Of a stretch of 46,962 bases of DNA, positions 1,689 to 25,865 are shown in pieces. Position 1 is the stretch's first letter. Each line of letters begins with the position of its first letter. The notes beneath the pieces were generated by a model, which did not search any database, was not told the origin of the DNA, and saw only the letters and a program-made list of their open reading frames with translations. The translations under genes were made by a program, and so were the position numbers. Origin of the DNA: Verrucomicrobiota bacterium (GTDB lineage Bacteria; Verrucomicrobiota; Verrucomicrobiia; Chthoniobacterales; UBA10450); the NCBI GenBank assembly GCA_003218705.1, contig QHOI01000157.1, forward strand, positions 1 through 46,962, given 5' to 3'.

Positions 1689-1883
1689 TTATGCGGTAAA
1701 GCGGAACTTTGTCCGGCCGCGCTTGGCGTTGTTCTTCGCTTTGCGGCGGTGCTTTTGATTCGGCGTCTCGAAAGCGCGCAGACGGCGCACTTCCTCGAGA
1801 ATGCCCTCGGAATCAAGCTTGTTCTTCAACCGCTTGAGTGCGCGATCTACCGGCTCACCTTTGCGAACGAGTACTTCTGGCAT
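1689..1883 (-). CDS. rpsU: 30S ribosomal protein bS21
   Basis: 64-aa ORF MPEVLVRKGEPVDRALKRLKNKL... with a basic C-terminus, the classic S21 sequence pattern. Confidence 0.93.
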   Translation of the reverse strand: MPEVLVRKGEPVDRALKRLKNKLDSEGILEEVRRLRAFETPNQKHRRKAKNNAKRGRTKFRFTA

Positions 1884-2009
1884 CGATAATCAACTCCAAT
1901 TCCTTGCAAATTTTGTGCCCAAATGGCGAGGCCGAGCTTAATCGGGCTAGGCGACTCCGTCAAATCGGCCACGCGGACAGGCTGATTCGCACGATTTTCA
2001 TATAGACTT

Positions 2010-2453
2010 ATGCGCCATTTTCTCGTCATCGTCTTAATCGGGCTGGCGTCGTCTGCGTTCGGAGCAACGCTCCAAATGCCAACCGAGAACCGCGTCATAA
2101 TACCCGGACACTGGAGACCGTCAGGCGGCTACATGGACGTTGCATTAAGGTGCGCTGCCTGGTTTCTTGAACACCCCGATGTGTCAGATGCGAATTCTCT
2201 GCGCGAGATAGCGCTCATTCGCCAGCACGCACGCGAATATCGCGTTCAGTTCATAGGCACGTTTCGGAACGGTCAGACCGTGCTTCTCTGCAACTTTTTT
2301 CCAGCTCCCAAACCCGGAGAGAAACAGGATCCTTACTCTTATTGGCGGAGCAGACGAGTCGAAGCAAAAGGCGGCGGGTTTTGGTTTTGGAGACTCGAGT
2401 TCGATAACGCGGTCGGCCGCTGCACGAATTTCGCTGTGAACAGCAACAGCTGA
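2010..2453 (+). CDS. Hypothetical secreted protein
   Basis: 147-aa ORF with a signal-like N-terminus (MRHFLVIVLIGLASSAFGA). No family recognised. Confidence 0.55.
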   Translation: MRHFLVIVLIGLASSAFGATLQMPTENRVIIPGHWRPSGGYMDVALRCAAWFLEHPDVSDANSLREIALIRQHAREYRVQFIGTFRNGQTVLLCNFFPAPKPGEKQDPYSYWRSRRVEAKGGGFWFWRLEFDNAVGRCTNFAVNSNS

Positions 2454-2486
2454 TAGCTGGGAGGCAATTCTAGCTTAAAAGACGCG

Positions 2487-4826
2487 CTAACGGGCGAGCG
2501 GATTCGCGGCCGTCGGCTTTTGCGTGACTTCCCGACGCAAAGTGCTGGTGCTTTGGCCCCGAGCGCGGCTCCACCAGAGGACGATTGGCGACGCGATGAA
2601 GATGGATGAATACGTTCCGACTACGACTCCGACGATGATTGCGAGTGAGAAATCGCGCAGGACCGCGCCGCCAAGCAGGAACAGACACAGAATCGGGATG
2701 AGCGTGACCGTGCTGGTCAATATGGTGCGGCTCAACGTCTGATTGATGCTCGAGTTCATGATTTCTTCGATCGACCCGCGCCGTCCGCTGGCCAGACCTT
2801 CACGAATACGGTCGTAAACGACGATCGTGTCGTTGATCGAATAACCGGCGATGGTCAGGACGGCGCCGACCATGGTCAGAGTTAGCTCCCGTCCGAGAAG
2901 CGAAAAGACGCCGACCGTGATGATGACGTCGTGCAGCAACGCGACGATCGCGCCGACCGCGAATGAAAGTTCAAACCGAAAGGTGACGAAAATTAAGATG
3001 CCAAGAATTCCGAGTCCAAGGGCCACGAGGGAGCTTTTGGCCAGTTCGCCGCCAACTAAAGCACCGACTCGCTCCGACCGTTCCACTTTGAAATTCGCGC
3101 TCGGCATGGTCTGGATGATTTGCTTCTCCACTTTGTCACTCGTGTTCAGCGGGCTGCGAACAGTGATGTAGTATTTGCCGCTTTGGGCCGATTCCTGAAT
3201 CGATGCGTCCGCCAAACCGATCGGTTTCAACCCGTCGCGCACTTGCCCGACGTCGATCTTGGCCGGCGAGCTTAGCGTCACCAAATCGCCGCCTCGGAAA
3301 TCGACGCCGAAGTTTTTCTCGCCACGAATATAAAACGATGTCGCGCCGGCCAGGATGAGCGCGAGCGAGCACATGCAGGCGAGAAATCCTTTGCCGAGGA
3401 AGTTGATGTTTTGCGACGAAATCAGATGCAGCATCGAGATCTTCTTCACCCGGCCCGTGTCTACCAGCCAGCCGAGTGCGTTCCGGCCGACGATGAGCGC
3501 GGTAAAGAGCGACGCGAGGATGCCGAAGGTCAACGAAATCGCGAACCCCCTGACCGGACCAGCGGCCTGCCAGAATAAAATGAGTGCGGTGATCAGCGTG
3601 GTCACGTTCGCGTCGAAAATGGAGCTGAATGCTTTTTGATAAGCCGTTTCCATCGCCACCCTGAGCGATTTCCCAAGGGCCATTTCTTCGCGCAGGCGCT
3701 CGTAAATCAGTACATTGGCATCAACCGACAAGCCAATCGTCAAAATGATGCCGGCAATTCCAGGAAGAGTCAGAACGAATCGAAACATTGTGAGCGCGCC
3801 GATCAGGAGAACGAGGTTTACTAGGAGCGCGAGGTTCGCGACCAATCCCGGCAGTCGATAATAGATAAGCACGCACACCAACGTGATTGCCAGTCCTAGC
3901 AAGCCGGCCATGATGCTGGCGCGGATCGAATCCAGGCCCAGTGTTGGCGAAACGCTGCGCTCTTCTTCGATGCTGACCGGTGTTTGGAGCGGGTTTTCCA
4001 AAACGCTGGCCAAGCCGCGCGCTTCTTTTTCCTCGAACTTCCCCGTGATAATGGCGTCGCCGCCATAAATCGCATCGCGAATCACCGGTGCGGATTGAAT
4101 CACGCCGTCGAGCACGATCGCAAAGCGGTGCCCTTTGTATTGTTCTGTGATTTTGCCGAATTGTTTCGCGCCTTCGCCATCGAACTTGAGCTGCACGGTC
4201 CAGCCTTCGTTGCCGTAGTAAGCATGCGATTCTTTGACGCGATCACCGCCGAGATCGGCTTTCTTTTTGACGAGTAAACGTTCCTCGCGCGGCTTTTCAT
4301 TTCCTTCCGCCGTCATTTTGTAAACTTCGATCCGATACTCGGGTGGAATGACTTCCTTGCCCTCATCGATCAATCTCAAGCGCTCGCCGTTGTCGGGATA
4401 AACAAGGCGAAACTCGAGTTTTGCCACCCGGGAGAGTTGCTCGCGCGCCTCCTGAATTTTCGCCGTATCGAGACCAGGAATCTGGACCAGAATGCGATCA
4501 TTCCCCACTGGACTGATGACTGGCTCGCTCACGCCAAAATAATCGATGCGCTTACGAATCACTTCGACCGCCTGGTCGAGCATTCCCTTGTTCACATCTT
4601 TGTCGCCACCCATCAGGCGAATGAGGAACGAGGTGCCGCCTTGAATATCGAGACCGAGCTGAATTTTTTCTTTCGGCGGCCAGATCGTGGCGATGCTGAA
4701 CGCAACCAACAACATCACCAAGGTCGTAGCCAGTAATCGTTTTCGCAGACCGACGTCAGTCGCAAAATACCAGCCAAAAAGAACCAGCAGTCCGAGACCG
4801 GCAAAAAATGTGAGAGCGGGAGTCAT
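2487..4826 (-). CDS. secDF: Protein translocase subunit SecDF (fused SecD-SecF)
   Basis: 779-aa ORF with an ATG at 4826. It has an N-terminal TM segment, a large periplasmic domain (GLDIQGGT...), then two successive 6-TM modules with SecD/SecF motifs (SVDANVLIYERLREE; INDTIVVYDRIRE). It follows yajC as in the conserved tgt-yajC-secD-secF arrangement. Confidence 0.93.
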   Translation of the reverse strand: MTPALTFFAGLGLLVLFGWYFATDVGLRKRLLATTLVMLLVAFSIATIWPPKEKIQLGLDIQGGTSFLIRLMGGDKDVNKGMLDQAVEVIRKRIDYFGVSEPVISPVGNDRILVQIPGLDTAKIQEAREQLSRVAKLEFRLVYPDNGERLRLIDEGKEVIPPEYRIEVYKMTAEGNEKPREERLLVKKKADLGGDRVKESHAYYGNEGWTVQLKFDGEGAKQFGKITEQYKGHRFAIVLDGVIQSAPVIRDAIYGGDAIITGKFEEKEARGLASVLENPLQTPVSIEEERSVSPTLGLDSIRASIMAGLLGLAITLVCVLIYYRLPGLVANLALLVNLVLLIGALTMFRFVLTLPGIAGIILTIGLSVDANVLIYERLREEMALGKSLRVAMETAYQKAFSSIFDANVTTLITALILFWQAAGPVRGFAISLTFGILASLFTALIVGRNALGWLVDTGRVKKISMLHLISSQNINFLGKGFLACMCSLALILAGATSFYIRGEKNFGVDFRGGDLVTLSSPAKIDVGQVRDGLKPIGLADASIQESAQSGKYYITVRSPLNTSDKVEKQIIQTMPSANFKVERSERVGALVGGELAKSSLVALGLGILGILIFVTFRFELSFAVGAIVALLHDVIITVGVFSLLGRELTLTMVGAVLTIAGYSINDTIVVYDRIREGLASGRRGSIEEIMNSSINQTLSRTILTSTVTLIPILCLFLLGGAVLRDFSLAIIVGVVVGTYSSIFIASPIVLWWSRARGQSTSTLRREVTQKPTAANPLAR

Positions 4827-7655: not shown

Positions 7656-9833
7656 ATGCCCGCGACGCTCGAAAAGAAAAAATCGACATCGGCGGGCCCG
7701 AACTCGCCGAACCGCAAGTTCCCGCTCGAGCGGACGCGGAACATCGGCATCGCCGCGCACATCGACGCCGGTAAAACGACGATCACCGAACGCGTTCTCT
7801 TTTACACGGGAATGATCCACAAGATGGGCGAGGTCCATGAAGGCACCACCGTCACTGACTGGATGGAACAGGAGCGCGAGCGCGGAATAACGATCACATC
7901 GGCCGCGACCACCTGCAGCTGGGCCCAGCGCAAGGAAGAAGGCGTTTACAAAATTTTCGAAGGGATCAAACAGCGGATCAACATCATCGACACGCCCGGT
8001 CACGTGGATTTCACGGCCGAAGTGGAGCGTTCGTTGCGCGTGCTCGACGGCGCGATCGCAGTTTTCGATGGAGTGGCTGGCGTGCAACCGCAATCAGAAA
8101 CCGTTTGGCGTCAGGCCACGAAATACAACGTCCCCTGCCTTGCGTTCATCAACAAGATGGATCGGGTTGGCGCCAACTTCGAGATGTCGGTCGATAGCAT
8201 TCATAAAAAACTCGGCGCAAACGCCTGGCCGGTGCTTTTGCCTCTGGGCAGGGAGGATCAGCTCAAAGGTCAGCTCGACGTTATTAATAAGAAGGCAATC
8301 ATTTATTCCGACAGCGATCAGCTTGGATCGACATATGAGGTCACGGACATCCCGAAGGAACACGTCGCTGCTGTCGACAAGGCTTACAAAGAACTGGTCG
8401 AACAGATTTCCAATCTCGATGACGAGATTGCCGAAGCGGTCCTGGAAGAGAAGCCGATCACTCCGGAGCTGTTGAAGGCCGCGATTCGCCGACAAACGAT
8501 AGCGAACAAATTTGTGCCGGTCATCGGCGGTTCGGCGTTGAAGAACATTGGTGTGCAGTACTTGGTCGACGCGGTGGTCGATTACCTGCCGAGTCCGCTC
8601 GACATTCCGCCAGCCAAAGGGATGGACCCCGACACCCACGAGCCGATGGAAGCGCTGACGGACGATAACGGGAACTTCTGCTCCCTCGCGTTTAAACTTT
8701 GGAGCGATCCATTTGTCGGGAAACTCGTTTTCTTCCGCGTCTATTCCGGCACGCTTTCGAAAGGCGACACCGTTTACAATCCGCGCACGAACAAACGTGA
8801 ACGCATCTCGCGTTTGATCCAAATCCAGGCCGACAAGCGCGAAGACATCGAAACGTGTTATTCGGGCGACATCGCCGCGATTGTTGGAATCAAGAACATT
8901 ACGACCGGCGACACATTGTGCGATGAGGACCATCCGATCCTGCTCGAGCCGCCGACGTTTCCTGATCCCGTCATTTCAATGGCGATCGAGCCAAAGACGA
9001 AATTGGACCAGGAAAAAATGGGCGTGGCCTTACAGCGTCTGGCCGAAGAAGATCCGACGTTTCGCGTCTACACCCACGAAGACACTGGTCAGACCATCAT
9101 CGCGGGCATGGGTGAGTTGCATTTGGAAATCATCCGCGACCGCATGTTCCGCGAATTCAAGGTGGACGCGAACGCGGGCAAACCGCAGATCGCGTATCGC
9201 GAAACAATCACCACCAACGCGCACGGTGTCGGCAAGTTAATCAAACAATCCGGCGGTCGAGGTCAGTACGGACACGTTGAAGTGGATTTACGGCCAGGCG
9301 AGCGCAGCAAAGGCCTCGTGGTCGAAAACAAGATCGTGGGCGGCGTTATTCCGCGCGAATACATCCCGGCGGTCAAGAAAGGCATCGAAGAAGCAGTGCT
9401 CGATGGTGTGCTTGGCGGCTACCCAGTTGTCGATGTTGAGGCGGACATTGTTTTCGGAAGCTTTCACGAAGTCGATTCGAGCGAGCTCGCGTTCAAGATG
9501 GCTGCGATCTTCGCGATGAAGGACGGCTTCCGGCAGGGCAAACCGATCCTGCTCGAGCCGATCATGAAGGTGGAAAACATCACCCCGGAAGAATATCAGG
9601 GCGACATTATCGGCGACTTAAACCGGCGTCGCGGCCAGGTGAACAGCATCGAGTCGCGTGGAAACCTGACCATCGTTCACGCTGAAGTTCCGTTGGCAGA
9701 GCTGTTCGGCTATGCCACCGCGATTCGCTCGCTTTCGAAAGGCCGGTCGAGTTACTCGATGGAGCCGTCGCACTTTCAACAGGTGCCGCAGAATTTGGTC
9801 GCGGCGATTCTTGATCAAAGGGAAGAAAAATGA
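7656..9833 (+). CDS. fusA: Elongation factor G
   Basis: GTPase motifs [17 protein letters not shown] and NKMD. The ATG at 7656 lies 4 nt after the rpsG stop, whereas the ORF-track start at 7626 lies inside rpsG. About 18 extra N-terminal residues precede the G domain. Confidence 0.96.
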
Positions 9834-10141
9834 CGGACGGCCAACGTATTCGTATTCGTTTGAAGGCGTTCGATCATCGCATGCTCGACCAGTCCGCGGT
9901 CGAGATTGTTGAAACCGCGAAGCGCACCGGCGCCCGTGTGGCCGGACCGATCCCGCTGCCGACGTTGATCGAGAAGTTCACCGTGAACCGTTCGCCGCAC
10001 GTGGACAAAAAATCGATGGAACAATTTGAGATCCGCACGCACAAACGGTTGCTCGACATAATCGAGCCGACCGCAAAAACGGTGGATGAGTTGAAGAAAC
10101 TGAATTTGCCTGCGGGCGTCGATATTACGATTAAGATTTAG
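9830..10141 (+). CDS. rpsJ: 30S ribosomal protein uS10
   Basis: 103 aa, [16 protein letters not shown]...; ATGA overlap with the fusA stop. Confidence 0.96.
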
Positions 10142-10170
10142 CCGCTTGAGAATTTTGCCACGACGCCAAC

Positions 10171-10950
10171 ATGAGTATCGGGTTACTAGGACAGAAAATC
10201 GGCATGACCAGCGTCTACGACGCCAACGGTCGGCTGCATCCTGTGACCGTGATCGCGGCGGGCGATAACGCTCTTCTGCGTCGCCTGACCAACGAAAATG
10301 ACGGCTACTCGGCCGTGCAAGTTGGGTTCGATTCGCAAAAGGAATCACGCGTGAACAAAGCCGAGCTCGGCGTCTTCAAGAGCGCGAACTCCGAACCGAA
10401 ACGCTTCGTCCGCGAATTTCGTCTAACGAGTGATCTGGCCGAAGGCGAAGTGGACCTCACCGTCACCCAATTTCAGTCGGGCGATTTTGTCGACGTGATT
10501 GGTCGCTCCAAAGGCAAAGGCTTCCAAGGCGTGATGAAGAAGCACAACTTCGATGGGCAAGGCGCGGCGCACGGCTCGAAGACGCATCGCCGCAATGGTG
10601 CCGTCGGCAATCGTTCCACTCCGGGCCGCATTTGGAAGAACATGGGCATGCCCGGTCATCTCGGCGACGAGCGCGTAACTGTGCAAAACCTGCAAGTGAT
10701 GCAGGTGCGCGAGGCCGAGAAAGTGATTTTGATCAGCGGCGCAGTTCCCGGTTGTAATGGGAGTTATGTGGTCGTTAGGCCGGCGATTAAGAATCCCGCA
10801 GCTCAGATAAAGCTGCACCAACAGCACGCAAAACAAGATAAGGCCGTCGCGAAGAAACACGAAGCTGAAAAGAAATCGGAAGAGAAGAAGCCTGAAGCAG
10901 AGAAGAAACAGGAAGCCGAAAAAAAACCTGAGGCGGCAGAGAAGAAATGA
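10171..10950 (+). CDS. rplC: 50S ribosomal protein uL3
   Basis: MSIGLLGQKIGMTSVYD...; 259 aa with a ~50-aa K/E/A-rich C-terminal extension. Confidence 0.96.
   Translation: MSIGLLGQKIGMTSVYDANGRLHPVTVIAAGDNALLRRLTNENDGYSAVQVGFDSQKESRVNKAELGVFKSANSEPKRFVREFRLTSDLAEGEVDLTVTQFQSGDFVDVIGRSKGKGFQGVMKKHNFDGQGAAHGSKTHRRNGAVGNRSTPGRIWKNMGMPGHLGDERVTVQNLQVMQVREAEKVILISGAVPGCNGSYVVVRPAIKNPAAQIKLHQQHAKQDKAVAKKHEAEKKSEEKKPEAEKKQEAEKKPEAAEKK
10855..10947 (+). repeat. Degenerate in-frame tandem repeat encoding (K)KPEAEKK-type units in the uL3 tail
   Basis: The sequence gaagctgaaaagaaa...cctgaagcagagaagaaa...gaagccgaaaaaaaacctgaggcggcagagaagaaa translates to HEAEKKSEEKKPEAEKKQEAEKKPEAAEKK. Confidence 0.6.
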
Positions 10951-11555
10951 GCGCGAAAGTTTTAACCAAAGCCGCCGCCAAGGAAGCCAAGATCGACATC
11001 ATCGAGGATGGTCGTGGCTCGCAAGCCGTTCACGATGTCGTGGTCGCAATGCGCGCAGCGCGGCGTTCGGGTTCAGCGAACACGAAAACAAAGGCCGAAG
11101 TCGACATGTCGGGCGCGAAACCATGGCGGCAAAAGGGAACGGGTCGTGCACGCGCCGGTTACGTTTCATCGCCGATCTGGCGAGGTGGCGGCGTCGTGTT
11201 TGGTCCTAAGCCGCGCGATTACTCCAAGAAAGTTTCCAAATCAGTTCGACGCCTGGCGTTGCAAAAGGCGCTGAGCGAGCGAATCAAAGCCGGCGACGTC
11301 CTGACGATCGACAAATTTGCCGTTTCCGAAATCAAAACCAAAGCCTTCGTCGATCTTGTCCGGAAGCAAACCGACGCGACGAAGGTGCTGATCATTTCCG
11401 ATTTTTTTGACGACAAGACCCACAAGTCCGCGCGGAACGTGAAGCCGGTGAAACTTGCGACGGCGGCTGACGTGAACACGGAGCAATTGCTCGCGTTTCA
11501 GAAAATTTTAGTCACGCCGCAAGCACTCGAGAAATTGGCGGAGAGACTTCAATGA
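10947..11555 (+). CDS. rplD: 50S ribosomal protein uL4
   Basis: 202 aa, ...KPWRQKGTGRARAG...; ATGA overlap with rplC. Confidence 0.95.
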   Translation: MSAKVLTKAAAKEAKIDIIEDGRGSQAVHDVVVAMRAARRSGSANTKTKAEVDMSGAKPWRQKGTGRARAGYVSSPIWRGGGVVFGPKPRDYSKKVSKSVRRLALQKALSERIKAGDVLTIDKFAVSEIKTKAFVDLVRKQTDATKVLIISDFFDDKTHKSARNVKPVKLATAADVNTEQLLAFQKILVTPQALEKLAERLQ

Positions 11556-11836
11556 GAGAGCCGCACGACATTATCGAGACCGCGTCGCTGACCGAAAAAT
11601 CCATTTCGGTTCTGCGCGACAAGTTCAACAAGTACGTTTTCCGCGTCAACCCACGCGCGAACAAGATTCAAATCAAAGACGCGGTTGAGCGTTTGTTCCA
11701 AAAGAAGGTGGTCGATGTGAACACCTGTAACTACGCCGGAAAAGAAAAACGCGTTCGCGGACCGCTCGGCCGGCGCCCGCATTGGAAGAAAGCGATCGTG
11801 ACGCTGGCGAAAGGCGAGAAGATCGAACTGGTGTAA
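11552..11836 (+). CDS. rplW: 50S ribosomal protein uL23
   Basis: 94 aa, ...YVFRVNPRANKIQIKDAVE...; ATGA overlap with rplD. Confidence 0.95.
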   Translation: MREPHDIIETASLTEKSISVLRDKFNKYVFRVNPRANKIQIKDAVERLFQKKVVDVNTCNYAGKEKRVRGPLGRRPHWKKAIVTLAKGEKIELV

Positions 11837-11839
11837 TTT

Positions 11840-12688
11840 ATGGCGCTCAAAAGTTATCGTCCACTCACGCCGATTCAGCGGTTCAAGCAGACGCCCGCCT
11901 TCGATGAGATCACGAAGTGGCAGCCAACGCGCAGTTTACTCGAGCCGAAGAAAAAATCGGGCGGCCGGAACAACTACGGCCGGCTCACGTCGCGCCACAT
12001 TGGCGGCGGTCACAAGCAAAATTATCGCAAAGTCGATTTCAGACGCCGCAAGCACGGCGTCGCGGCCGAAGTGATGGGGATTGAGTACGATCCGAACCGT
12101 TCGGCGCGAATTGCTCTTATTAAGTACAGCGACGGCGAACTGAGCTACATCCTGGCGCCGAATGGCCTGCAGGTCGGCGCCAAAGTTGTCGCCGGTAACG
12201 ACGTCGCGCCCGATCTTGGCAATTCATTGCCGCTGCGCGCGATTCCGCTCGGCACCAACATTCACAACATCGAACTAAGCCCCGGCCGGGGCGGTCAAGT
12301 TGCGCGCAGCGCCGGTCAGCAAGCGATCCTGAACAATCTCGAGGGCGGCTACGCGCTCGTGAAAATGCCGTCCGGCGAAGTCCGCCGAATTCACGAGAAC
12401 TGTTTCGCCACCATCGGCCAGGTTGGAAACGTCGATCACATGAATGTGGCCAGCGGCAAAGCCGGGCGCACGCGTTGGCAGGGACGTCGTCCGCACGTGC
12501 GCGGGATGGTGATGAACCCGATCGACCACCCGATGGGCGGCGGTCAGGGCAAATCAAAGGGCGGCGGCGGACGTCATCATCCAGTCAGTCCATGGGGGCA
12601 GCTGGCCAAAGGATTTAAAACACGCAGTAAACGCAAGCCGAGTGACCGATTCATTCTCGAGCGCAAGCGAGCGAACAAGAAAGGTTGA
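11840..12688 (+). CDS. rplB: 50S ribosomal protein uL2
   Basis: 282 aa, [11 protein letters not shown]...GGGHKQ...[10 protein letters not shown]... Confidence 0.96.
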
Positions 12689-12693
12689 TTTTT

Positions 12694-12972
12694 ATGGGAA
12701 GATCACTAAAGAAAGGACCCTTCGTCGAATCGCATCTTCTGGAGAAGATCGACAAGATGAACGCGTCGGGCTCGAAAAAGGCGATCAAGACCTGGTCGCG
12801 ACGCTCGATGGTAACGCCGGATTTTGTCGGCCACACGTTTTTGGTGCACAACGGAAAGATATTTAATTCCGTTTTCATCACCGAGAACATGGTCGGTCAT
12901 AAGCTCGGCGAGTTTTCGGCTACCCGAATCTTTAAGAAACACGGTTCGCACACGGCGAAGGTGACCAAATAG
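12694..12972 (+). CDS. rpsS: 30S ribosomal protein uS19
   Basis: [11 protein letters not shown]...HNGK...; ATG at 12694, 5 nt after the rplB stop. The ORF-track start at 12685 overlaps rplB. Confidence 0.95.
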
Positions 12973-13764
12973 TTGAGAATTTTTTTGGCAGTGTTGGGCT
13001 GCGTAACGCTGGCTCGAGGGCTGGCGGCAGAGGGAAATAGTTCTTTGTCAGAATCCAAAATTGAAAGCGCGGAGCAAAAGATCACCGCGGAATCGCTGCT
13101 GGCGCAGAACGAAGATTTGCGCAGGCAATTGTCGATTCAACAGGAGTCGCTCAAGACAGTGACAGCGAGCCTGGCGGAATCGAATGCGGAAGCGGAAGTG
13201 TTTCGCCGCAAATATTCCGACCTGGAATCGCGGATGGCAGCGTTGGGGCTGGCGTCGGCGAGCAAAGATCGGGCAAAACTCGAGCAACGTTTGCTTGCCG
13301 CAGTAAGTGATCTTCGGTTGGCGCAAAGAGAGGGCGATGAGCTTCGCGATCAACTACTTGGTTTGAACGAGGCCCTGTTGCGATATTTGCAGACATCGCA
13401 GGGTGGCGACGCGCAGGCGCGGATGGACGTGGAAACGCAATTGCGCAAAACGAACCAGCTGGTGGGAAGATCGATCCCGCCGCTGCGGGACGCGCAAGAG
13501 CCGCAACCGAGTTTGATGGACGGCAGTGTCCTGAGCGTGAAGGACGAATGGTCTTTTGTGGTTGCGAACATTGGCGAGCAGCAAGGCGTCAAGATTGGGA
13601 TGCCGCTGCGAGTAATGCATGGGGAACAAAAGATTGCGACCCTGAGGGTGGTGGACGTGCGACAGCGAATTTGCGGTGCGGTAATTGAGGATTCTGGAAA
13701 AGAGAAAATAAAAGTGGGCGATCGCCTCCAGGCGGATGCCCGCTCGAATGTGACTTTAAAATAG
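12973..13764 (+). CDS. Hypothetical exported coiled-coil protein inserted between rpsS and rplV
   Basis: The 263-codon frame exactly fills the rpsS-rplV gap, with a TTG abutting the rpsS TAG and its own TAG abutting the rplV ATG. It has a signal-like N-terminus (MRIFLAVLGCVTLARGLAA), ~140 aa of heptad-like E/Q/L/R-rich sequence and a beta-rich C-terminal ~80 aa. The start codon is uncertain (TTG at 12973, or an internal GTG/TTG). Confidence 0.65.
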   Translation: MRIFLAVLGCVTLARGLAAEGNSSLSESKIESAEQKITAESLLAQNEDLRRQLSIQQESLKTVTASLAESNAEAEVFRRKYSDLESRMAALGLASASKDRAKLEQRLLAAVSDLRLAQREGDELRDQLLGLNEALLRYLQTSQGGDAQARMDVETQLRKTNQLVGRSIPPLRDAQEPQPSLMDGSVLSVKDEWSFVVANIGEQQGVKIGMPLRVMHGEQKIATLRVVDVRQRICGAVIEDSGKEKIKVGDRLQADARSNVTLK

Positions 13765-14223
13765 ATGGAAGTTAGATCGATATATAAGTACGCGCGGATT
13801 TCGCCATTCAAGGTGCGCGAAGTCACGCGAGAGATTCAGGGTCTGCCGGTTTCGGCGGCACTCGACATTCTTGCTTTCACGCCCAAGAAAGCGGCGTTCC
13901 TGATCAACAAAACGCTCAAGAGCGCGATCGCGAACGCGGAAAACAATGCGAACTTGAAAGCCGACGGTCTGGTGGTCAAGGAAGCGGTCGTGGGCGAGGG
14001 CCCGACTTTTAAACGAATGACGCCGCGCGCTCGTGGCAGCGGCAGCCGGATTTTGAAACGGACGAGCCATATCAGGATCGTTTTGACGGACGACGTAGCA
14101 ATTGAGACTCGCGAGACTCGAAAAGCGAAACGCAAGCAAGAAAAGAAAACAGGGGAGGCCGGAGCAAAATCGACAGCGGCGAAAAAAGATAAGAAGAAGA
14201 CCGCGAAAGCGGCCAAGAAATAA
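13765..14223 (+). CDS. rplV: 50S ribosomal protein uL22
   Basis: MEVRSIYKYARISPFKVREV...; 152 aa with a K-rich C-terminal extension. Confidence 0.95.
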   Translation: MEVRSIYKYARISPFKVREVTREIQGLPVSAALDILAFTPKKAAFLINKTLKSAIANAENNANLKADGLVVKEAVVGEGPTFKRMTPRARGSGSRILKRTSHIRIVLTDDVAIETRETRKAKRKQEKKTGEAGAKSTAAKKDKKKTAKAAKK

Positions 14224-14226
14224 TTT

Positions 14227-14916
14227 ATGGGACAAAAAGTTAATCCGATTGGATTCAGACTCGGGGTGAACCGTGATTGGCGGTCGCGCTGGTACGCGTC
14301 GCCCCAAGAGCTGCCCGCGTTTTTGCACAGCGATCTCGAGATTCGCGCTTACGTGAAGAAGAAGCTGCAATTCGCCGCGGTCTCGAAAATTGTGATCGAA
14401 CGCGCGTGGAATTCAATTCGCGTGACCATTCACACCGCCCGTCCCGGCATAGTCATCGGCCGCAAAGGCGCCGAGATCGAGAAGATGACGGAAGAAATTT
14501 CCAAGATGGCGCAGGGCAAACAAATCAAGATTGACATCCAGGAGATCAAAACACCGGAACTCGACGCGCAGCTCGTCGCGGAAAACGTGTCGCTGCAAAT
14601 CGAGCGTCGAATCGCTTACCGCCGGGCCATGAAAAAAGCGGTGCAGGTAGCAATGGATTTCGGCGCGGAAGGGATTCGCTTGCGTTGCTCGGGCCGATTA
14701 AACGGCGCAGAAATTTCGCGCTCGGAATGGTACCGCGAAGGGAAGGTTCCACTGCACACTTTGCGCACTCCGATTGACTATGGTTTCGCCGAAGCAAACA
14801 CCGTTTATGGCAAGATCGGCGTGAAATGCTGGATGTGTAAGAAGGAAGAGGCGCCGAGCGAAGCCCCACTTGCAATGGCTCCGCCACCGCCGCCAGCTGA
14901 GCCGGTCGAAGCCTAG
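14227..14916 (+). CDS. rpsC: 30S ribosomal protein uS3
   Basis: [24 protein letters not shown]...; Pro-rich C-terminal tail. Confidence 0.96.
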
Positions 14917-14924
14917 GAATTTTT

Positions 14925-15350
14925 ATGCCGTTGATGCCCAAACGAGTGAAGTATCGGAAGTCCCAGCGGGGAAGCCGCAAAGGGACTGCTTCGCGCAATT
15001 TACGAATCAATTTTGGCGAGTTCGGATTGCAAACGCTCGAGCGCGCGTGGATCACGAACACGCAGATTGAAGCGGCGCGCGTGGCGTTGACCCGCAACAT
15101 GAAACGCAAAGGCAAACTGTGGATCCGGATTTTTCCGGACAAATCAGTCACGGCGCGTCCGCCGGAAACGCGAATGGGCAAGGGAAAAGGTCAGCCGGAG
15201 TTCTGGGTCGCGACGGTGAAGCCCGGAAACATTTTGTTTGAGCTCGACGGTCTGACCGAATCGGTCGCGCGCGAGTCGCTGCGACTAGCGGCGGACAAAT
15301 TACCGGTGCGCACGAAATTTATTAGCCGTCACCACGTGGCCGCGGCCTAA
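14925..15350 (+). CDS. rplP: 50S ribosomal protein uL16
   Basis: [16 protein letters not shown]... Confidence 0.96.
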
Positions 15351-15355
15351 CGAAC

Positions 15356-15589
15356 ATGAAAATTAAAGAAATAGTTGAGATGAGCACGGACGAGTTGCTG
15401 ACAAAACGGCGCGATCTCCGCCAGGAACGTTTGCATCTGCGTTTGCAACAGCAGAGCGGCCAGCTCGAGCAGCCAAGCCGGCTGCGTTTGCTGCGGCGCG
15501 ATGTGGCGCGGATCGACACGATTCTTTCCCAGCGGGCCAAGCAACCACAGGCCATTCCCGCCGCAGAACCAAAGCCGAAGAAGAACTAA
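15356..15589 (+). CDS. rpmC: 50S ribosomal protein uL29
   Basis: 77 aa, MKIKEIVEMSTDELLTKRRDLRQERLHLR... Confidence 0.92.
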   Translation: MKIKEIVEMSTDELLTKRRDLRQERLHLRLQQQSGQLEQPSRLRLLRRDVARIDTILSQRAKQPQAIPAAEPKPKKN

Positions 15590-15592
15590 TTT

Positions 15593-15904
15593 ATGGCCGA
15601 GCAAGCAACCCAAGATCGACAATCTACGGCGCAACCGCCACCGTTGCCGGCGAAGTACACGCGGGCGGCGCGCAAGACGCGCGTCGGCGAAGTCATTTCC
15701 GAGCGGATGAACAAGACGATCGTGGTCCGGACGATCACGCGCGTGCCGCATCCGAAGTTCGGCAAGATTGTGAAACAGATCCGAAGATTTTACGCGCACG
15801 ATGAGGAGAACAAGGCGAAGACGGGCGACACCGTCCGGATTATGGAAACGCGGCCGCTGAGCAAATTGAAACGCTGGCGATTAGTAGAGGTGCTTCAGAA
15901 GTAA
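15593..15904 (+). CDS. rpsQ: 30S ribosomal protein uS17
   Basis: 103 aa with a core of ...[31 protein letters not shown].... About 20 extra residues at the N-terminus. Confidence 0.93.
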
Positions 15905-15909
15905 TTGTT

Positions 15910-16275
15910 ATGGTGCAGCTTCGATCGAGACTTGACGTCGCGGACAATACCGGCGCGCGGATGGCGACGATGATCGGCGTGATCGGCAAGGCCACGCTTT
16001 ACGCTGGGATTGGGGACGTCATCACTGCGAACGTGAAAGAAGCGAGCGCGACGGGCACGGTGAAAAAGGGCGAAGTCGTGCGAGCGGTCCTGGTTCGCAC
16101 GCGGCAAGCGATTCGTCGCGATGACGGCTCTCTTCTGCGATTCGACAACAACGCGATCGTGATCATCGACAAGGATTTGAATCCTCGCGGGACGCGCATT
16201 TTCGGTCCGGTCGCGCGCGAACTGCGCGAGCGCAATTTTATGAAAATCGTTTCGCTGGCTCCGGAGGTTTTATGA
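15910..16275 (+). CDS. rplN: 50S ribosomal protein uL14
   Basis: [17 protein letters not shown]... Confidence 0.96.
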
Positions 16276-16571
16276 GCCGGATGAAATTTCATGTTAAAAA
16301 AGGAGACGAAGTAGAGGTGATCTCCGGGAACTTCAAAGGTTCGAGCGGCAAAATTCTCGAGGTGTTGTCAAGCAAACAGCGAGTGCTGGTTGAAGGCGTG
16401 CGGATTATTAAAAAGCATCTGCGCAAATCGGAAGACAATCCGCAGGGCAAAATCGCCGAACGCGAAGGGCCGATTCATATTTCGAACGTGAAATTGGTCG
16501 AGCGCGAGAAGAAGGCCGAAAAGAAAGCGAAAACGAAGCCGAAGAAAGAGGCTGAGAAGAAGGCGGCCTAA
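16272..16571 (+). CDS. rplX: 50S ribosomal protein uL24
   Basis: [25 protein letters not shown]...; ATGA overlap with rplN. An alternative ATG is at 16281. Confidence 0.94.
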
Positions 16572-17179
16572 TGGAAAACGAATTTTACCGTCATTACAAA
16601 GACCGCGTGGTGCCCGCTTTGCGCGAACGGCATAAGTACAAAAACGTCCACCAGATTCCGCGGGTCCACAAAGTGGTGATTAACACTTCGGTTGGTTCGC
16701 AGCCGGACATCAAGCAGGCTTTGGACGAAGCAAAAGTGGAGCTGGCGCTCATTACCGGGCAACAACCGGCCGAGACGCGCTCGAAAAAGAGCATCGCCAA
16801 TTTTAAATTGCGCAAGGACCAGATTATCGGCGCGAAAGTTACACTGCGTGGTGATCGGATGTACGAATTTCTAGAGCGATTGATTAAAGCTGCGCTCCCG
16901 CGGATTCGAGATTTTCGAGGTGTTTCACCCCGCTGTTTTGACGGGAACGGCAATTACACACTCGGTGTCCCCGATCAGACAATCTTTCCCGAGATCGAGA
17001 TGGACAAAATCAAGCGCAACATCGGTTTTGATGTTACAATTGTGACCACCGCGCGAACGGACGAGGAGGCCAAATCGCTCTTGAGCGAACTGGGAATGCC
17101 TTTTTCCGATCGCGCGAAAAAGCTCGCCACGGCGAGTCCGTCCGAAGGCGGACCGGCTGGGCAAGAGCAAGCCGCCTGA
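16571..17179 (+). CDS. rplE: 50S ribosomal protein uL5
   Basis: 202 aa, ...[18 protein letters not shown]...; TAATG overlap with rplX. The C-terminal tail is about 20 aa longer than usual. Confidence 0.95.
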
Positions 17180-17184
17180 ATTTC

Positions 17185-17583
17185 ATGAGTACTGTTACAG
17201 ATCCAATTGCAGACCTGCTTGCTCGCATGCGCAACGGCGCGCACGCGCAAAAGATCGAGATCTTCGTGCCGTACTCCAAGCTGAAAGCCGAGGTTGTCCG
17301 GATTCTGAAGAATGAAGGTTACATCAGCGATTACGAAGTCGACACGAAGGCGGCGCATCCGCGCATCAAAATCACGAACAAGCTGGTCGATCACACTTGC
17401 GCCATCACCGGATTGAAACGGGTCAGCCGGCCCGGTCTACGGCGTTACGTCGGCGCCGGCGAAATTCCGCGCGTGCTCGGTGGAATGGGAACGGCGATTT
17501 TGTCGACGTCGCGCGGTATTATGTCCGGTCGTGAAGCCAAGAAACAAAAAGTGGGCGGCGAACTGCTCGCCTACGTTTGGTAA
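17185..17583 (+). CDS. rpsH: 30S ribosomal protein uS8
   Basis: MSTVTDPIADLLARMRNG...; starts 5 nt after the rplE stop, so no rpsN lies between them. Confidence 0.96.
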   Translation: MSTVTDPIADLLARMRNGAHAQKIEIFVPYSKLKAEVVRILKNEGYISDYEVDTKAAHPRIKITNKLVDHTCAITGLKRVSRPGLRRYVGAGEIPRVLGGMGTAILSTSRGIMSGREAKKQKVGGELLAYVW

Positions 17584-17588
17584 GTTTT

Positions 17589-18128
17589 ATGTCGCGAATT
17601 GGAAACAAACCGGTCGACATTCCCGACAAAGTCAAAGTCAACATCGACAATGACGGCGGCGTTTCGGTGGAAGGCCCGAAAGGCAAACTCAACTGGAAAT
17701 TGCCACGGCAAATCACGGGCAACGTGAAAGACAATCATGTCTCGCTCGCGCGCGGCGCGGAAACTCGCAGCGTGAAAGCGTTGCACGGACTATCCCGTGC
17801 GCTCGTGCACAACATGGTCGTCGGCGTGAGCGAAGGTTTTACGAAACAGCTCGAGATCGAGGGCGTCGGTTTTAAAGCGGCAGTGCAAGGAACGAATCTC
17901 AATCTTAGTCTCGGTTTTTCGCACCCGATCCTGTTTCCGATTCCAAAGGACATCAAAATCACCGTCACCGATCAGACCAAGATCATGGTTCAAGGCGCGG
18001 ACAAGAAAGTTGTCGGCCAGGTTGCGGCGGACATTCGCCGCTATTACCCGCCGGAGCCGTACAAGGGCAAGGGCGTGCGTTACGCCGGCGAGCAAATCCG
18101 TCGCAAGGAAGGCAAGACGGTCCAGTAA
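17589..18128 (+). CDS. rplF: 50S ribosomal protein uL6
   Basis: [17 protein letters not shown]...; ATG at 17589, 5 nt after the rpsH stop. Confidence 0.95.
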
Positions 18129-19657: not shown

Positions 19658-21163
19658 ATGGTTTCGGCCTTTCTCAACACGGTCAAGATACCGGAGTTAC
19701 GGCGGCGAATTTTGTTCACGCTGGCGATCGTCGTTGTTGTGCGACTTGGCGCGGCGATCACAACGCCCGGAGTCAATCAGGCGGTGTTGCAGGAATGGTT
19801 TCGAAGTGCGCTAACCGAAAAATCCGGTGGGAATCTCGCAGCTTTGCTGAATTTGTTTAGTGGCGGCGCATTGGAAAATTGCGCGATATTTTCACTCGGA
19901 ATCATGCCCTACATCAGCGCATCGATCATGATGCAGCTGCTTTCGGCGGTAATTCCGCAATTGGGGAGACTCGCTCGCGAAGATGGCGGCCGGCAAAAGA
20001 TCATGCAATACACCCGGTTCATGACTGTCGGCCTTTGCATTTTTCAGGGATATTTACTCGCAATCTCATTCCAGCATCCGGAAGCTTATCGGGTCGCGTT
20101 GCCGGGAATTTCGGAAACGATTGCGCGGTTAGGCATTCCGCTAGTCGACGATCCCGGATGGGTTTTTCGGATAGTGACGGTGATTTCCCTAACCACCGGC
20201 ACATTGTTGTTGATGTGGCTGGGCGATCAAATCACTGAGCGTGGCATCGGGAACGGCATTTCGTTGATTATCACCATTGGTATCGTCGCGCGATTACCGG
20301 CCGCGCTCGCCCAGGCGTGGAAAACGTTTGTCCCGAGCGGCGGCGCGGCGACGCAGGTCAATCCGATGGTGCTTGTAATGATGATTTTGTTTCTCTTTTG
20401 TGTTATCGCTGGAGTCATTGCGATTACGCAAGGCGTGCGAAAGATCACGGTCCAATACGCCAAGCGTGTGGTCGGTCGCAAACAATATGGCGGCAACACG
20501 CAGTACATGCCGTTGAAAGTGAATTATCCCGGCGTAATGCCCATCATTTTTGCGTGGGCGCTCCTGCTATTCCCGAACCAGATCGTGAGCTGGGCCTTCC
20601 CGAACAGTCCGACCGCGCGGCAACTTTCAGAAATGCTTTCGACCGGATGGCTGCATTACGTCGTCCTGGCTGCGATGATTTTCTTCTTCAGCTATTTTTG
20701 GGTCGCGACCCAGTTTCAACCATCGCAGATCGCAGACGATCTTAAGAAATATGGCGGCTACATTCCGGGCGTCCGACCCGGGAAGCCAACTGCGGATTTT
20801 CTCGATTACACCATGACGCGTCTGACGTTCGCAGGCGCGATCTTCCTCACGATCATAGCAGTGCTCCCGAGTTTGCTGAGCCAGAGTTTGCACGTGCCAA
20901 CGGTAACCGCGCAGTTTTTTGGCGGCACGAGTTTGCTCATTATTGTCGGTGTCATGCTGGACACGATGCGTCAGGTTGAAACGCATTTGATTCAGCGGCA
21001 TTACGATGGATTTCTGCGCAAAGGTCGGGTGCGCGGTGGATTCACAGGCCGCTCTGCTTATGTTCGCGGTGAAGCCGCAGCGCAACGCACGCTGATGTGG
21101 CTTTATGTCGGCATCGCCATCATCGTCATTGGTGGCGTGGCGGCGTTTTTGGCATCGAAGTGA
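19658..21163 (+). CDS. secY: Preprotein translocase subunit SecY, with C-terminal extension
   Basis: 501 aa, ...IPELRRRILFTLAIVVVVRLG...GIMPYISASIMMQLL...; canonical position after rplO. About 35-45 extra C-terminal residues include a hydrophobic helix. Confidence 0.95.
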   Translation: MVSAFLNTVKIPELRRRILFTLAIVVVVRLGAAITTPGVNQAVLQEWFRSALTEKSGGNLAALLNLFSGGALENCAIFSLGIMPYISASIMMQLLSAVIPQLGRLAREDGGRQKIMQYTRFMTVGLCIFQGYLLAISFQHPEAYRVALPGISETIARLGIPLVDDPGWVFRIVTVISLTTGTLLLMWLGDQITERGIGNGISLIITIGIVARLPAALAQAWKTFVPSGGAATQVNPMVLVMMILFLFCVIAGVIAITQGVRKITVQYAKRVVGRKQYGGNTQYMPLKVNYPGVMPIIFAWALLLFPNQIVSWAFPNSPTARQLSEMLSTGWLHYVVLAAMIFFFSYFWVATQFQPSQIADDLKKYGGYIPGVRPGKPTADFLDYTMTRLTFAGAIFLTIIAVLPSLLSQSLHVPTVTAQFFGGTSLLIIVGVMLDTMRQVETHLIQRHYDGFLRKGRVRGGFTGRSAYVRGEAAAQRTLMWLYVGIAIIVIGGVAAFLASK

Positions 21164-23986: not shown

Positions 23987-24598
23987 ATGGGTAGATACAC
24001 CGGACCGAAAACAAAGATCAGCCGCCGTTACGGCGTGCAGATTTTTGGACCGTCGAAGTCGCTCGAACGAAAGAATTATCCGCCCGGGATGCATGGGCCC
24101 AAAGGCTCGCGGCGCAAACAATCCGATTACGCGATCGCGCTCGGGGAGAAGCAGAAGCTGCGTTATCAATACGGCCTGCTCGAAAGACAGTTCCGCCGGA
24201 TTTTCCAAAACGCGCTCCGCAAGCGCGGTGTAACCGGTGAAACGCTGCTGCAACTGCTCGAGACGCGTCTCGATAATGTGATTTATCGTCTAGGTCTGGC
24301 CAACACTCGCAACGCGGCGCGCCAGCTCGTTTCGCATAGGCACGTCCAGGTCAACGGTCGCAACGTCAACGTCGCTTCCTTCAATGTGAAAGCCGGCGAC
24401 GAGATCGCGATCAACGACAAACCGAAATCGCGGCAGCTCGCTCTCCGCAATCTCGAGCTCACGCAAATTGTGCCGGTGCCGGATTGGCTGACGGTCGATC
24501 GCGATGCTCTCAAAGGAAAAGTGGCGCACATCCCTTCGCGTGAAGAGATGCAGCCGATCGTCAACGAACAGTTGATCGTCGAGTTGTATTCGCGCTAA
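23987..24598 (+). CDS. rpsD: 30S ribosomal protein uS4
   Basis: MGRYTGPKTKISRRYGV...; ATG at 23987, 5 nt after the rpsK stop. The ORF-track start at 23951 lies inside rpsK. Confidence 0.95.
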   Translation: MGRYTGPKTKISRRYGVQIFGPSKSLERKNYPPGMHGPKGSRRKQSDYAIALGEKQKLRYQYGLLERQFRRIFQNALRKRGVTGETLLQLLETRLDNVIYRLGLANTRNAARQLVSHRHVQVNGRNVNVASFNVKAGDEIAINDKPKSRQLALRNLELTQIVPVPDWLTVDRDALKGKVAHIPSREEMQPIVNEQLIVELYSR

Positions 24599-24607
24599 AC
24601 GCGCTCT

Positions 24608-24844
24608 TTAGACGCGGTTGTTTTCCAAGAATTCCAAGGCTTTGTCGTAGCTTTTGCGCCGGAGAAAGTGGGCGAGCTGCGGATCGATTGGTTTTGGCAT
24701 CGCGGCGGCGAGTTTCTCGATCTTTTCTGAAATCGCCTGCAATCGCGCGGTGTGCGCTTCGGGATCGCGTCGGCTGCTTTCGTCGCTAATGATCGCGAGC
24801 CGCTCGCGCAAAGCAGCGGCAAGATCGAGAATCGCCCGGTTCAT
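24608..24844 (-). CDS. Small helical hypothetical protein (78 aa)
   Basis: ATG at 24844 (MNRAILDLAAALRERL...KSYDKALEFLENNRV). The longer 170-aa version in the ORF track would overlap the receiver gene on the opposite strand. Family not recognised. Confidence 0.5.
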   Translation of the reverse strand: MNRAILDLAAALRERLAIISDESSRRDPEAHTARLQAISEKIEKLAAAMPKPIDPQLAHFLRRKSYDKALEFLENNRV

Positions 24845-24977
24845 TTGATTAACCAATAATAAGCCCGCGACGAGTGGCGGCAAGCGGAGCGCTCGCCTTA
24901 CAATGGCACACGGCGAGAGCGCGCCGTGGCTCAAATCATTCGTGCTTATTCGCGGCCATTCGTGGTAAATCAACGCT

Positions 24978-25397
24978 GTGGCGGCCCAGCCGAAACGCAT
25001 TTTGATGGTGGACGATGACGTCGCCCTGTTGCGAGTGGTGCGTGAAGCGTTGGTGGCGTCGCTCCAGTGTGAGGTCGATACCTCGCCCAAACCGGAGTAC
25101 GCGTTCGAACTGGCGCTCAAGAAGAAATACGACCTGCTCGTCTTCGATTTCCAAATGCCGATGATCGACGGCGCGATGTTGTTTTTTTTAATCGGGAAGG
25201 TTTATCAGAATAGCCAGCCGGTGAGAGAAGTTCCGCCGCTGCTCCTTATCTCCGGAAAAGCCGAGGAAACGAGAGCGCAGGAATTGCTCAAGGAGCCTGG
25301 CGTCGCCGGTTTAGTGGCCAAGCCTTTTGCAATCAATCGCCTGCTCGAAAAAATCAAAGCAGCTGTTCCCGCAATCCGGTCGGTCACATCATTCTAG
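24978..25397 (+). CDS. Single-domain CheY-like response regulator (receiver only)
   Basis: Receiver signature is present: MVDDD acidic pocket, LLVFDFQMPMIDG phospho-acceptor Asp, LLLISG, and KPF. GTG start, with no output domain and no adjacent kinase. Confidence 0.85.
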   Translation: MAAQPKRILMVDDDVALLRVVREALVASLQCEVDTSPKPEYAFELALKKKYDLLVFDFQMPMIDGAMLFFLIGKVYQNSQPVREVPPLLLISGKAEETRAQELLKEPGVAGLVAKPFAINRLLEKIKAAVPAIRSVTSF

Positions 25398-25439
25398 CCG
25401 TCGGGCGTGTTCGTCCCCCGGTCGGATGCGGTTACAACG

Positions 25440-25760: not shown

Positions 25761-25865
25761 AACTAAAATTCCTTCCTAAAATAACGCTTTAGCGAGGGAC
25801 GTTTGCTTGACAAGCGGTTTCTGAACTCTGCTTGGCGAAAAGGTAAACTTCCAATAACGTGCCCC

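Follow-up and report, generated by a model that had tools for sequence, protein, structure and literature searches.

The S10 operon of a Verrucomicrobiota bacterium (contig QHOI01000157.1, of which the whole analysed stretch of 46,962 nucleotides is called here the window) carries an additional open reading frame (ORF) between rpsS and rplV, the genes of the ribosomal proteins uS19 and uL22. This ORF, of 263 codons on the plus strand (12973..13764, with a TTG start at 12973 and a TAG stop at 13762-13764), is a genuine, conserved protein-coding gene. Non-ribosomal passengers in ribosomal operons are known already, and so is the barrel fold predicted for the C-terminal part of the product; what is new is the protein family, for which no model exists, and its place in the operon, which is itself new and remarkably stable. 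The explanation that best accounts for the results, held here at a probability of about 0.55, is that a single insertion, early in the evolution of the Verrucomicrobiota, placed the gene directly before rplV, and that its inheritance has been vertical since then; that its product would be an exported protein built of a coiled coil and a small beta-barrel; and that it would be expressed with the ribosomal genes and act as a scaffold in the envelope.

A conserved gene in the rpsS-rplV junction

Homologues of the 263-residue product are numerous. A homology search retrieved 4240 of them at E ≤ 1e-3, and the best 120 of these 4240, with 82-99% identity and 255-285 aa, come from metagenome-assembled genomes (MAGs) of Verrucomicrobia or Chthoniobacterales. 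An exhaustive HMMER search over 1.84 billion cluster representatives (50% identity clusters) matched 816 clusters at E ≤ 1e-3, of which 349 remain at E ≤ 1e-10 and 79 at E ≤ 1e-30. Homology over the full length reaches down to about 28% identity with a nearly constant length and the same architecture, and at least 269 genomes, in a scan that took one genome for each GTDB species, encode a relative. The names given to the homologues in the databases are either "hypothetical protein" or coiled-coil mis-annotations (ZapB, SlyX, Lpp, AcrA, MreC).

The selection acting on the gene was estimated by the Nei-Gojobori method on codon alignments of the window and 80 species-level relatives. The median ratio of nonsynonymous to synonymous substitution (dN/dS) is 0.14 for the whole ORF, and by region 0.56 for the signal peptide, 0.14 for the coiled coil, 0.60 for the linker and 0.08 for the barrel; the ribosomal protein genes rplB, rplV and rpsC gave 0.06, 0.08 and 0.03, respectively. 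The synonymous divergence of the ORF (proportion of synonymous differences, pS, about 0.6) equals that of the neighbouring ribosomal protein genes. The check on selection proposed in the initial annotation of this DNA therefore returns purifying selection across the relatives. That the frame is spurious and the rpsS-rplV spacer simply long, or that what is left here is the remnant of a decaying gene, might be suspected from the many long non-coding ORFs on both strands of the window, the TTG start and the uninformative database annotation. That reading is refuted, and next to nothing is left of its probability: dN/dS is 0.14 while synonymous change is saturating, length and architecture are kept down to 28% identity, the fold is predicted confidently, and the gene is carried by at least 269 species-level genomes.

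The position of the gene is as well conserved as its sequence. The order rplB-rpsS-ORF-rplV-rpsC was found in all of the 80 genome loci that were retained from the species-level scan for the study of synteny, so that an orthologue sits at the same junction in every relative examined, which is the comparison that had been suggested at the outset. Five distant homologues, with 28-42% identity to the window protein (P0235, P0267, P0215, P0368 and P0192, one of them labelled Verrucomicrobiales), have Ribosomal_S19 and Ribosomal_L22 as flanking genes as well. A further 68 loci came from metagenomes, which were scanned with distant members as the seed (the six-sequence alignment A4); in 66 of the 68 the gene lies directly upstream of rplV. 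Counted over the assessable loci, rplV is immediately downstream in every one, and rpsS is upstream in all assessable ones except L155 and L156. The latter, a contig of 1.2 kb, was set aside as a chimeric assembly, with the barrel and rplV present, the upstream part scrambled and urease-like and aminotransferase-like frames overlapping. L155 is a 28.7 kb contig of a more distant, high-GC lineage, whose rplV is 53% identical to that of the window. At 1739-3147 of this contig, directly upstream of rplV, there is a homologue that is clear by hhalign (probability 98.7%, E 2.6e-16), and shorter than the others. Besides the barrel it has a coiled coil of reduced length, an acidic spacer rich in Pro and a membrane or signal segment. 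The place of rpsS is taken by a divergently oriented, unrelated ORF resembling helix-turn-helix and phosphotransferase system EIIA proteins. The S10 operon is split in this lineage and, since rplV is kept there in the absence of rpsS, the conserved linkage is to rplV.

The identity of the ORF product to its relatives tracks that of rplB (Spearman 0.78, n = 111 loci). The rate at which the ORF protein evolves is roughly two to three times that of the ribosomal proteins, its identity being about 30% at distances where that of rplB is about 63%. The GC content of the ORF, 55%, equals that of its surroundings and gives no sign of a recent transfer. Synteny, the tracking of rplB and the matching GC content together favour a single old insertion with vertical inheritance thereafter, which forms part of the explanation favoured above. 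The carriers bear the MAG labels Chthoniobacterales, Chthoniobacteraceae, Verrucomicrobiales, Verrucomicrobium sp. and Verrucomicrobiota. Two carriers have MAG labels from outside the Verrucomicrobiota, namely P0310 (Pyrinomonadaceae) and L076 (DATIOX010000041.1, Candidatus Dormiibacterota). The ribosomal genes flanking the ORF in L076 are 86-95% identical to those of the window (rplB 86%, rpsC 95%), a pattern that suggests mis-binning of the contig and not a true carrier from another phylum.

The S10 operon belongs to the most conserved operons of bacteria, and few bacterial gene adjacencies are as invariant as the rpsS-rplV junction. At this junction a non-ribosomal, putatively exported protein has been held across a phylum while the ribosomal proteins diverged to about 60% identity, and the inserted gene provides a clean marker, of the synapomorphy type, for the lineage. 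No description of an insertion between rpsS and rplV in Verrucomicrobia was found in the literature searched, in agreement with the initial annotation, which had considered an exported protein abutting ribosomal protein genes unusual and undescribed. The signature protein CT421.2 of the Planctomycetes-Verrucomicrobia-Chlamydiae (PVC) superphylum was considered and rejected. Like the ORF product, it is a hypothetical protein confined to one lineage, and it was put forward as a phylogenetic marker of a wider group that includes the Verrucomicrobia; however, with its 53-80 aa (Gupta et al. 2012, PMC3444138) it is unrelated to the ORF product in size and architecture.

Export signal, coiled coil and barrel of the product

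The product was modelled at full length with AlphaFold2 from a 44-sequence alignment (mean pLDDT, the predicted local distance difference test, 86.9), and four parts can be distinguished in it. The putative signal peptide, aa 1-19 (MRIFLAVLGCVTLARGLAA; 12973..13029, plus strand), was read from the sequence, with cleavage predicted before the conserved EGNSSLSESK. It is followed by a helical coiled coil (aa 26-167; 13048..13473, plus strand; pLDDT mostly above 90; alignment A2), in which the helices span residues 26-90, 97-144 and 147-167. The conserved turn EALG with the nearly invariant G92 and the motifs SLAxANxEAExFRR and LExRLLxAVxDLR are characteristic of this part. A Pro-rich linker (aa 168-183; 13474..13521, plus strand), variable and of low confidence (pLDDT below 50 at 171-174), with indels in alignments A1 and A2, leads to a six-stranded beta-barrel (aa 184-254; 13522..13734, plus strand) with pLDDT above 90 in the full-length model. 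When the barrel was modelled as an isolated domain, AlphaFold gave a pLDDT of 87 and a predicted TM score (pTM) of 0.76. In alignment A2 the barrel residues G201, G209, R230 and D250 are invariant and G205, P211, R216, D228, G235 and G249 nearly so; the C-terminal tail beyond the barrel is variable among members. The scans gave no match to a ribosomal protein in Pfam or NCBIfam, and the product combines a signal peptide with an acidic to neutral coiled coil, whereas a ribosomal protein would be expected to be cytoplasmic, basic and RNA-binding. The model, inspection of the signal peptide and the profile scans thus support what the initial annotation had supposed, that the ORF probably encodes a non-ribosomal, exported coiled-coil protein with a Pro-containing linker and a small C-terminal beta-barrel.

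The N-terminus was judged by inspection against the pattern of a Sec signal cut by signal peptidase I, that is, a positive n-region, a hydrophobic h-region of 7-15 residues and small residues at -1 and -3. The window protein and all aligned members conform to it; in the former the n-region is MR, the h-region IFLAVLGCVTLA and the c-region RGLAA|EG. Among the relatives the sequence of this segment is variable, although always short and hydrophobic, with an AxA-like end followed by the highly conserved (E/Q)GNSSL(S/T)ESK. The distant members have an ATG start and textbook signal peptides, such as MKVVASAAAIVFLLVGLGLQAQ|E and MKHIFSLLRTILLGLFGFGWVALSAQ|E, and their signal peptidase I sites read ...GLGLQAQ|E and ...VALSAQ|E. 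The N-terminus would therefore be a cleavable Sec signal and the protein would be exported to the periplasm. It had also been proposed that the segment contains a VLGC lipobox, in which case the product would be a lipoprotein of the outer or inner membrane. Many members from the Chthoniobacterales do carry [LV][VL]GC in the hydrophobic segment, for example LVVGC or ILVGC. Nevertheless, the cysteine, which an [LVI][ASTVI][GAS]C lipobox requires to be invariant, is missing in several close relatives (MIMFVGMLPAGGLAGEGNSS, VSGSVVAASVAQAQGNSS; MFVGLLPAG, VSGSVVAAS and MMGWVML) and in all distant members; in the window it would be residue 10, with hydrophobic residues continuing beyond it, and a cleavage site of the AxA type follows in all members. 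The lipobox was not upheld for the family, for which a lipoprotein is improbable, although a lipoprotein form might occur in the Cys-bearing subclade.

No family could be assigned to the protein in the initial annotation, and the scans of the window protein agree, with no Pfam or NCBIfam model at threshold. The family would merit a model of its own. When 44 diverse members were scanned singly against Pfam, the only recurrent match other than to coiled coils was FlgT_C (PF16538), found in 23 of the 44 at E < 1. This match spans mainly profile positions 4-29, the first third of the profile. The window barrel scores 15.8 bits (E 0.019); the best E on full-length members is 7.5e-5, and the best member, as an isolated barrel, reaches 25.0 bits (E 2.7e-5), below the gathering threshold of 27 bits, as are all the others. 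Searching the Protein Data Bank (PDB) sequences with the full-length profile gave only coiled-coil noise (vimentin, liprin, BST2), and the barrel profile gave matches at motif level only, to the lipoyl half of a MexC-like adaptor (E 0.0016) and to TsaP (E 0.022). An adaptor of the HlyD/AcrA type, which would have a lipoyl domain split by an alpha-hairpin as well as beta-barrel and membrane-proximal domains, was discarded, the similarity being a 34-residue motif match to the first lipoyl half of the MexC-like protein that is not collinear with the order of domains in the ORF product; no HlyD match appeared in the Pfam scans of the window protein and the 44 members.

Structure comparison was more informative. 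With the whole protein as query Foldseek gave TMq values of only 0.17-0.26, the coiled coil dominating the query, and the search was therefore repeated with the domain-only model. The best matches were then FlgT structures at a level expected of the same fold (8z5n_0, TMq 0.69, E 2.6e-4; 3w1e, TMq 0.67, E 7.7e-4), and the crown domains of F1/V1-ATPases followed with TMq 0.58-0.67 and a root-mean-square deviation of 2.2-3.5 Å over about 75 residues. The modelled barrel has the fold of the FlgT C-terminal domain, of the F1-ATPase crown domain and of the MreC barrel (template modelling scores of 0.6-0.7), in line with the early remark that it is reminiscent of MreC; the fold is shared with FlgT_C-type domains, and formal membership in that family is not reached.

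FlgT-C-type domains occur in the H-ring of the Vibrio flagellum, and the two C-terminal domains of TsaP, which forms spokes around the PilQ secretin, are alike (bioRxiv 10.1101/2020.05.29.123786). These domains are, as the ORF barrel, small periplasmic beta-barrels or beta-rolls of about 70-80 residues and share with it the motif hydrophobic-hydrophobic-x-N/D-x-G-x-x-x-G-V-x-x-G-M/T-P, FlgT-C being the best structural match. The proteins as wholes differ. FlgT has FlgT-N and FlgT-M domains and a flagellar context, whereas the ORF product has a long coiled coil instead and ribosomal neighbours in all loci; an identity with the H-ring protein was therefore rejected, the region before the barrel being wholly helical coiled coil. 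TsaP has a LysM domain and a pilus context, whereas the ORF product lacks LysM and is not encoded with pilus genes. The F1/V1 crown is also a six-stranded barrel, and the F1 barrels pack side by side into a ring; however, it is cytoplasmic, lies within an ATPase of 500 residues in an unrelated context and has no significant sequence similarity to the ORF barrel, so that the likeness is one of fold and not of family.

The resemblance to MreC raises the question of whether the ORF is the MreC of this lineage, or a truncated MreC paralogue, moved into the S10 operon; the product would then be anchored in the membrane and its periplasmic barrel would activate the elongasome transpeptidase. Both proteins have a similar layout, an N-terminal hydrophobic segment followed by a coiled coil and a beta-barrel. 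Foldseek on the whole protein found MreC 2j5u with E 3.3e-4, Pfam MreC (PF04085) appears weakly in 3 of the 44 members at E < 1 (best E 0.004), and two members carry the label MreC from JGI. All these matches are nevertheless far below threshold: the window protein has no Pfam hit to PF04085 at E ≤ 10 and an E of 1.8 with the NCBIfam model (PRK13922), and the one match that was inspected spans positions 9-43 of a barrel-core profile of 147 positions. The ORF barrel is a single one of 70 residues, as opposed to the MreC core, and the N-terminus looks cleavable at an AxA-type site rather than a bitopic anchor. The gene is always in the S10 operon and never beside mreB or mreD, FlgT and the F1 crown are better structural matches, and canonical MreC has been reported to be present in Verrucomicrobia (PMC5147048). 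A role as MreC is, hence, unlikely, though it deserves slightly more credit than the lipoprotein form.

Expression and possible role

The initial annotation placed the ORF exactly in the gap between its neighbours, and the coordinates bear this out on both sides. Upstream, rpsS (12694..12972, plus strand) ends with HTAKVTK and the stop TAG at 12970-12972, in the same reading frame as the ORF and with that single TAG between them; its translation agrees with S19 in all loci, and its Pfam label Ribosomal_S19 is taken over from the homologous loci. Downstream, the ATG of rplV (13765..14223, plus strand) follows at 13765, immediately after the ORF stop. The junctions leave no room for a promoter or a terminator, and a scan of the operon for both gave nothing above chance, so that the ORF is probably co-transcribed with the ribosomal genes, and the abutment of stops and starts suggests translational coupling on both sides in this genome. 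The ORF start is preceded, 8 nt before the TTG and within the last codons of rpsS, by the Shine-Dalgarno-like AAGGTGA (12958-12964), and no such sequence was found upstream of rplV in the window. Almost no gene of the operon has a recognisable Shine-Dalgarno sequence, the starts following A/T-rich runs (aattt ATG, ttttt ATG). The TTG of the ORF is the sole non-ATG start in the operon (window 9800-17600). In the window and the 80 close relatives (81 loci), 43 have a start codon at -4 to +1 nt relative to the rpsS stop, and it is TTG or GTG in 42 of these 43; the gap from the ORF stop to the rplV ATG is 0 or -1 nt in 36.

The codon adaptation index of the ORF is 0.64, and that of the ribosomal protein genes is 0.69-0.84, values that are inflated because these genes formed the reference set; secY, tgt and adk have 0.65, 0.64 and 0.61. 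The codon usage, which had been described as less adapted than that of the flanking ribosomal genes, is indeed so, although mildly, and the effect is not stronger than in secY or adk of the same cluster. The features of junctions and codons fit a passenger gene that would share a transcript with the ribosomal genes, would often be coupled to them in translation and would have a lower rate of translation than they do.

A scheme for the function can be drawn from these features. The protein would be exported to the periplasm and its signal peptide cut by signal peptidase I; it would be co-transcribed with the ribosomal protein genes, with coupling on both sides in this genome, and its output would be held below that of the neighbours by the near-cognate TTG start and the ordinary codon usage. 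The barrel would be a module for protein-protein contacts or ring-forming oligomerisation, by analogy with such barrels in the H-ring (FlgT), in the spokes that TsaP forms around the PilQ secretin and in the F1 crown, and the coiled coil would be a spacer or stalk. The whole could be a housekeeping periplasmic scaffold whose synthesis follows that of ribosomes and, hence, the growth rate. Oligomerisation or partner binding by the barrel, a stalk function of the coiled coil and a housekeeping envelope scaffold made in proportion to ribosome synthesis are a tentative proposal, with the odds against it. Precedents exist in secY, adk, map and infA of the spc operon and rpoA of the alpha operon, housekeeping non-ribosomal genes with ordinary codon usage that are co-transcribed with ribosomal protein genes; secY, adk and map of the neighbouring spc operon show how a scaffold gene might ride with ribosomal genes. 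These passengers, however, are near-universal and located at the ends of spc or alpha, whereas the ORF lies inside S10, between rpsS and rplV, and apparently in one phylum.

Several observations weigh against the scheme or parts of it. A spacer of 55-111 nt made of short periodic repeats separates the ORF stop from rplV in 35 of the 81 loci (L011, at 3790-3883, L014, L031-L033, L050 and L062 among them), and the distant members have gaps of 14-60 nt, some with their own Shine-Dalgarno-like sequences. Tight abutment is not universal, therefore, and translational coupling cannot be essential to the function; abutment is one of at least two solutions in this clade. All sequence matches of the barrel to named families are below threshold, and the fold is a generic one. 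Export, cleavage and coupling are all deduced from sequence. The ring or scaffold role draws on analogy, and the gene neighbourhood is ribosomal only. Finally, the taxonomic range relies on MAG labels, with no cultured strain identified among the named hits.

Four of the spacers were folded and each gave a long hairpin with bulges at regular intervals (-27 to -38 kcal/mol, with z-scores of -2.4 to -7.5). Their sequence differs between sublineages, while the palindromic repeat layout appears to be kept. Many spacers between rpsS and the ORF, with odd translations (NFRFSIFDFRL or LKIEDCRLRQ, for example), resemble these elements.

The linkage to rplV admits a regulatory interpretation as well. 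uL22 lines the ribosome exit tunnel that senses arrest peptides, and the ORF could act in the manner of SecM, MifM or VemP, as a secretion monitor: a nascent chain with a signal peptide would tune how strongly uL22 and the genes after it are translated, in response to Sec activity or to tethering of the mRNA at the membrane. The signal peptide, the stop abutting the rplV ATG, the lack of a Shine-Dalgarno-like sequence before rplV and the linkage specifically to rplV, even without rpsS in L155, are in its favour. In such a protein, however, a conserved C-terminal arrest motif and poor conservation of the rest would be expected, and the opposite is observed: the whole protein of 260 residues is under strong purifying selection, the folded barrel above all, the tail after the barrel is variable with no conserved arrest-like motif, and the abutment to rplV is lost in the 35 close relatives with spacers and in the distant members, some with Shine-Dalgarno-like sequences. 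This interpretation is consequently an improbable one, less likely than the MreC identity. A further possibility is that the protein is an essential envelope component specific to the Verrucomicrobiota and that its position is functional in itself, coupling envelope construction stoichiometrically to ribosome production; it might even tether the S10 mRNA to Sec and make the translation of uL22 and downstream genes sensitive to secretion. We regard this as a speculative extension with low odds, comparable to those of MreC. If it were true, ribosome biogenesis and the cell envelope would be linked in a novel way.

The family is also of wider interest. The product is a candidate essential envelope protein without annotation in abundant and mostly uncultured soil bacteria (Chthoniobacterales, including 'Candidatus Udaeobacter'). 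The locus could also be a natural test case of how very different protein outputs are obtained from adjacent cistrons of one highly expressed mRNA, the features seen that could set the output being the near-cognate start, the abutment of stop and start codons and, in relatives, hairpins on either side.

Surroundings of the gene

The gene order around the ORF is fusA-rpsJ-rplC-rplD-rplW-rplB-rpsS-[ORF]-rplV-rpsC-rplP-rpmC-rpsQ-rplN-rplX-rplE-rpsH-rplF. The array starts with rpsL and rpsG before fusA and continues after rplF with rplR, rpsE, rplO, secY, adk, map, rpsM, rpsK and rpsD, and the canonical S10 order (rpsJ-rplC-rplD-rplW-rplB-rpsS-rplV-rpsC-rplP-rpmC-rpsQ) is intact in the window except for the ORF inserted between rpsS and rplV. 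At 9830-9833 the stop of fusA overlaps the ATG of rpsJ (ATGA) and tuf is absent between them, so that the S10 operon is joined head to tail to the str operon. At the other end (24598-26130) the part corresponding to the alpha operon finishes after rpsM-rpsK-rpsD, with neither rpoA nor rplQ next; rpsD is followed by two minus-strand ORFs without Pfam hits (24608-25120 and 25394-25762) and then by trpF.

Genes for the envelope or export are present around the ribosomal cluster, namely secDF (2487-4826, minus strand), secY (19658-21163, plus), a secretin (27064-28779, plus), an HtrA-type protease (35784-37295, plus) and a YkuD L,D-transpeptidase (40148-40609, plus); none of them adjoins the inserted ORF. 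Among the relatives, rpsC is called as a fragment of 82 aa in L086 (5301-6174) and as an intact gene of 282 aa in L087 (5301-6149), although the two contigs are nearly identical; the fragment is probably due to a frameshift or an assembly error in L086. Several ribosomal proteins of the window, among them those of rplC (10171-10950), rplV (13765-14223) and rplX (16272-16571), have long C-terminal tails rich in Lys, Glu and Ala; that of rplC reads ...KKHEAEKKSEEKKPEAEKKQEAEKKPEAAEKK and that of rplV ...KAKRKQEKKTGEAGAKSTAAKKDKKKTAKAAKK.

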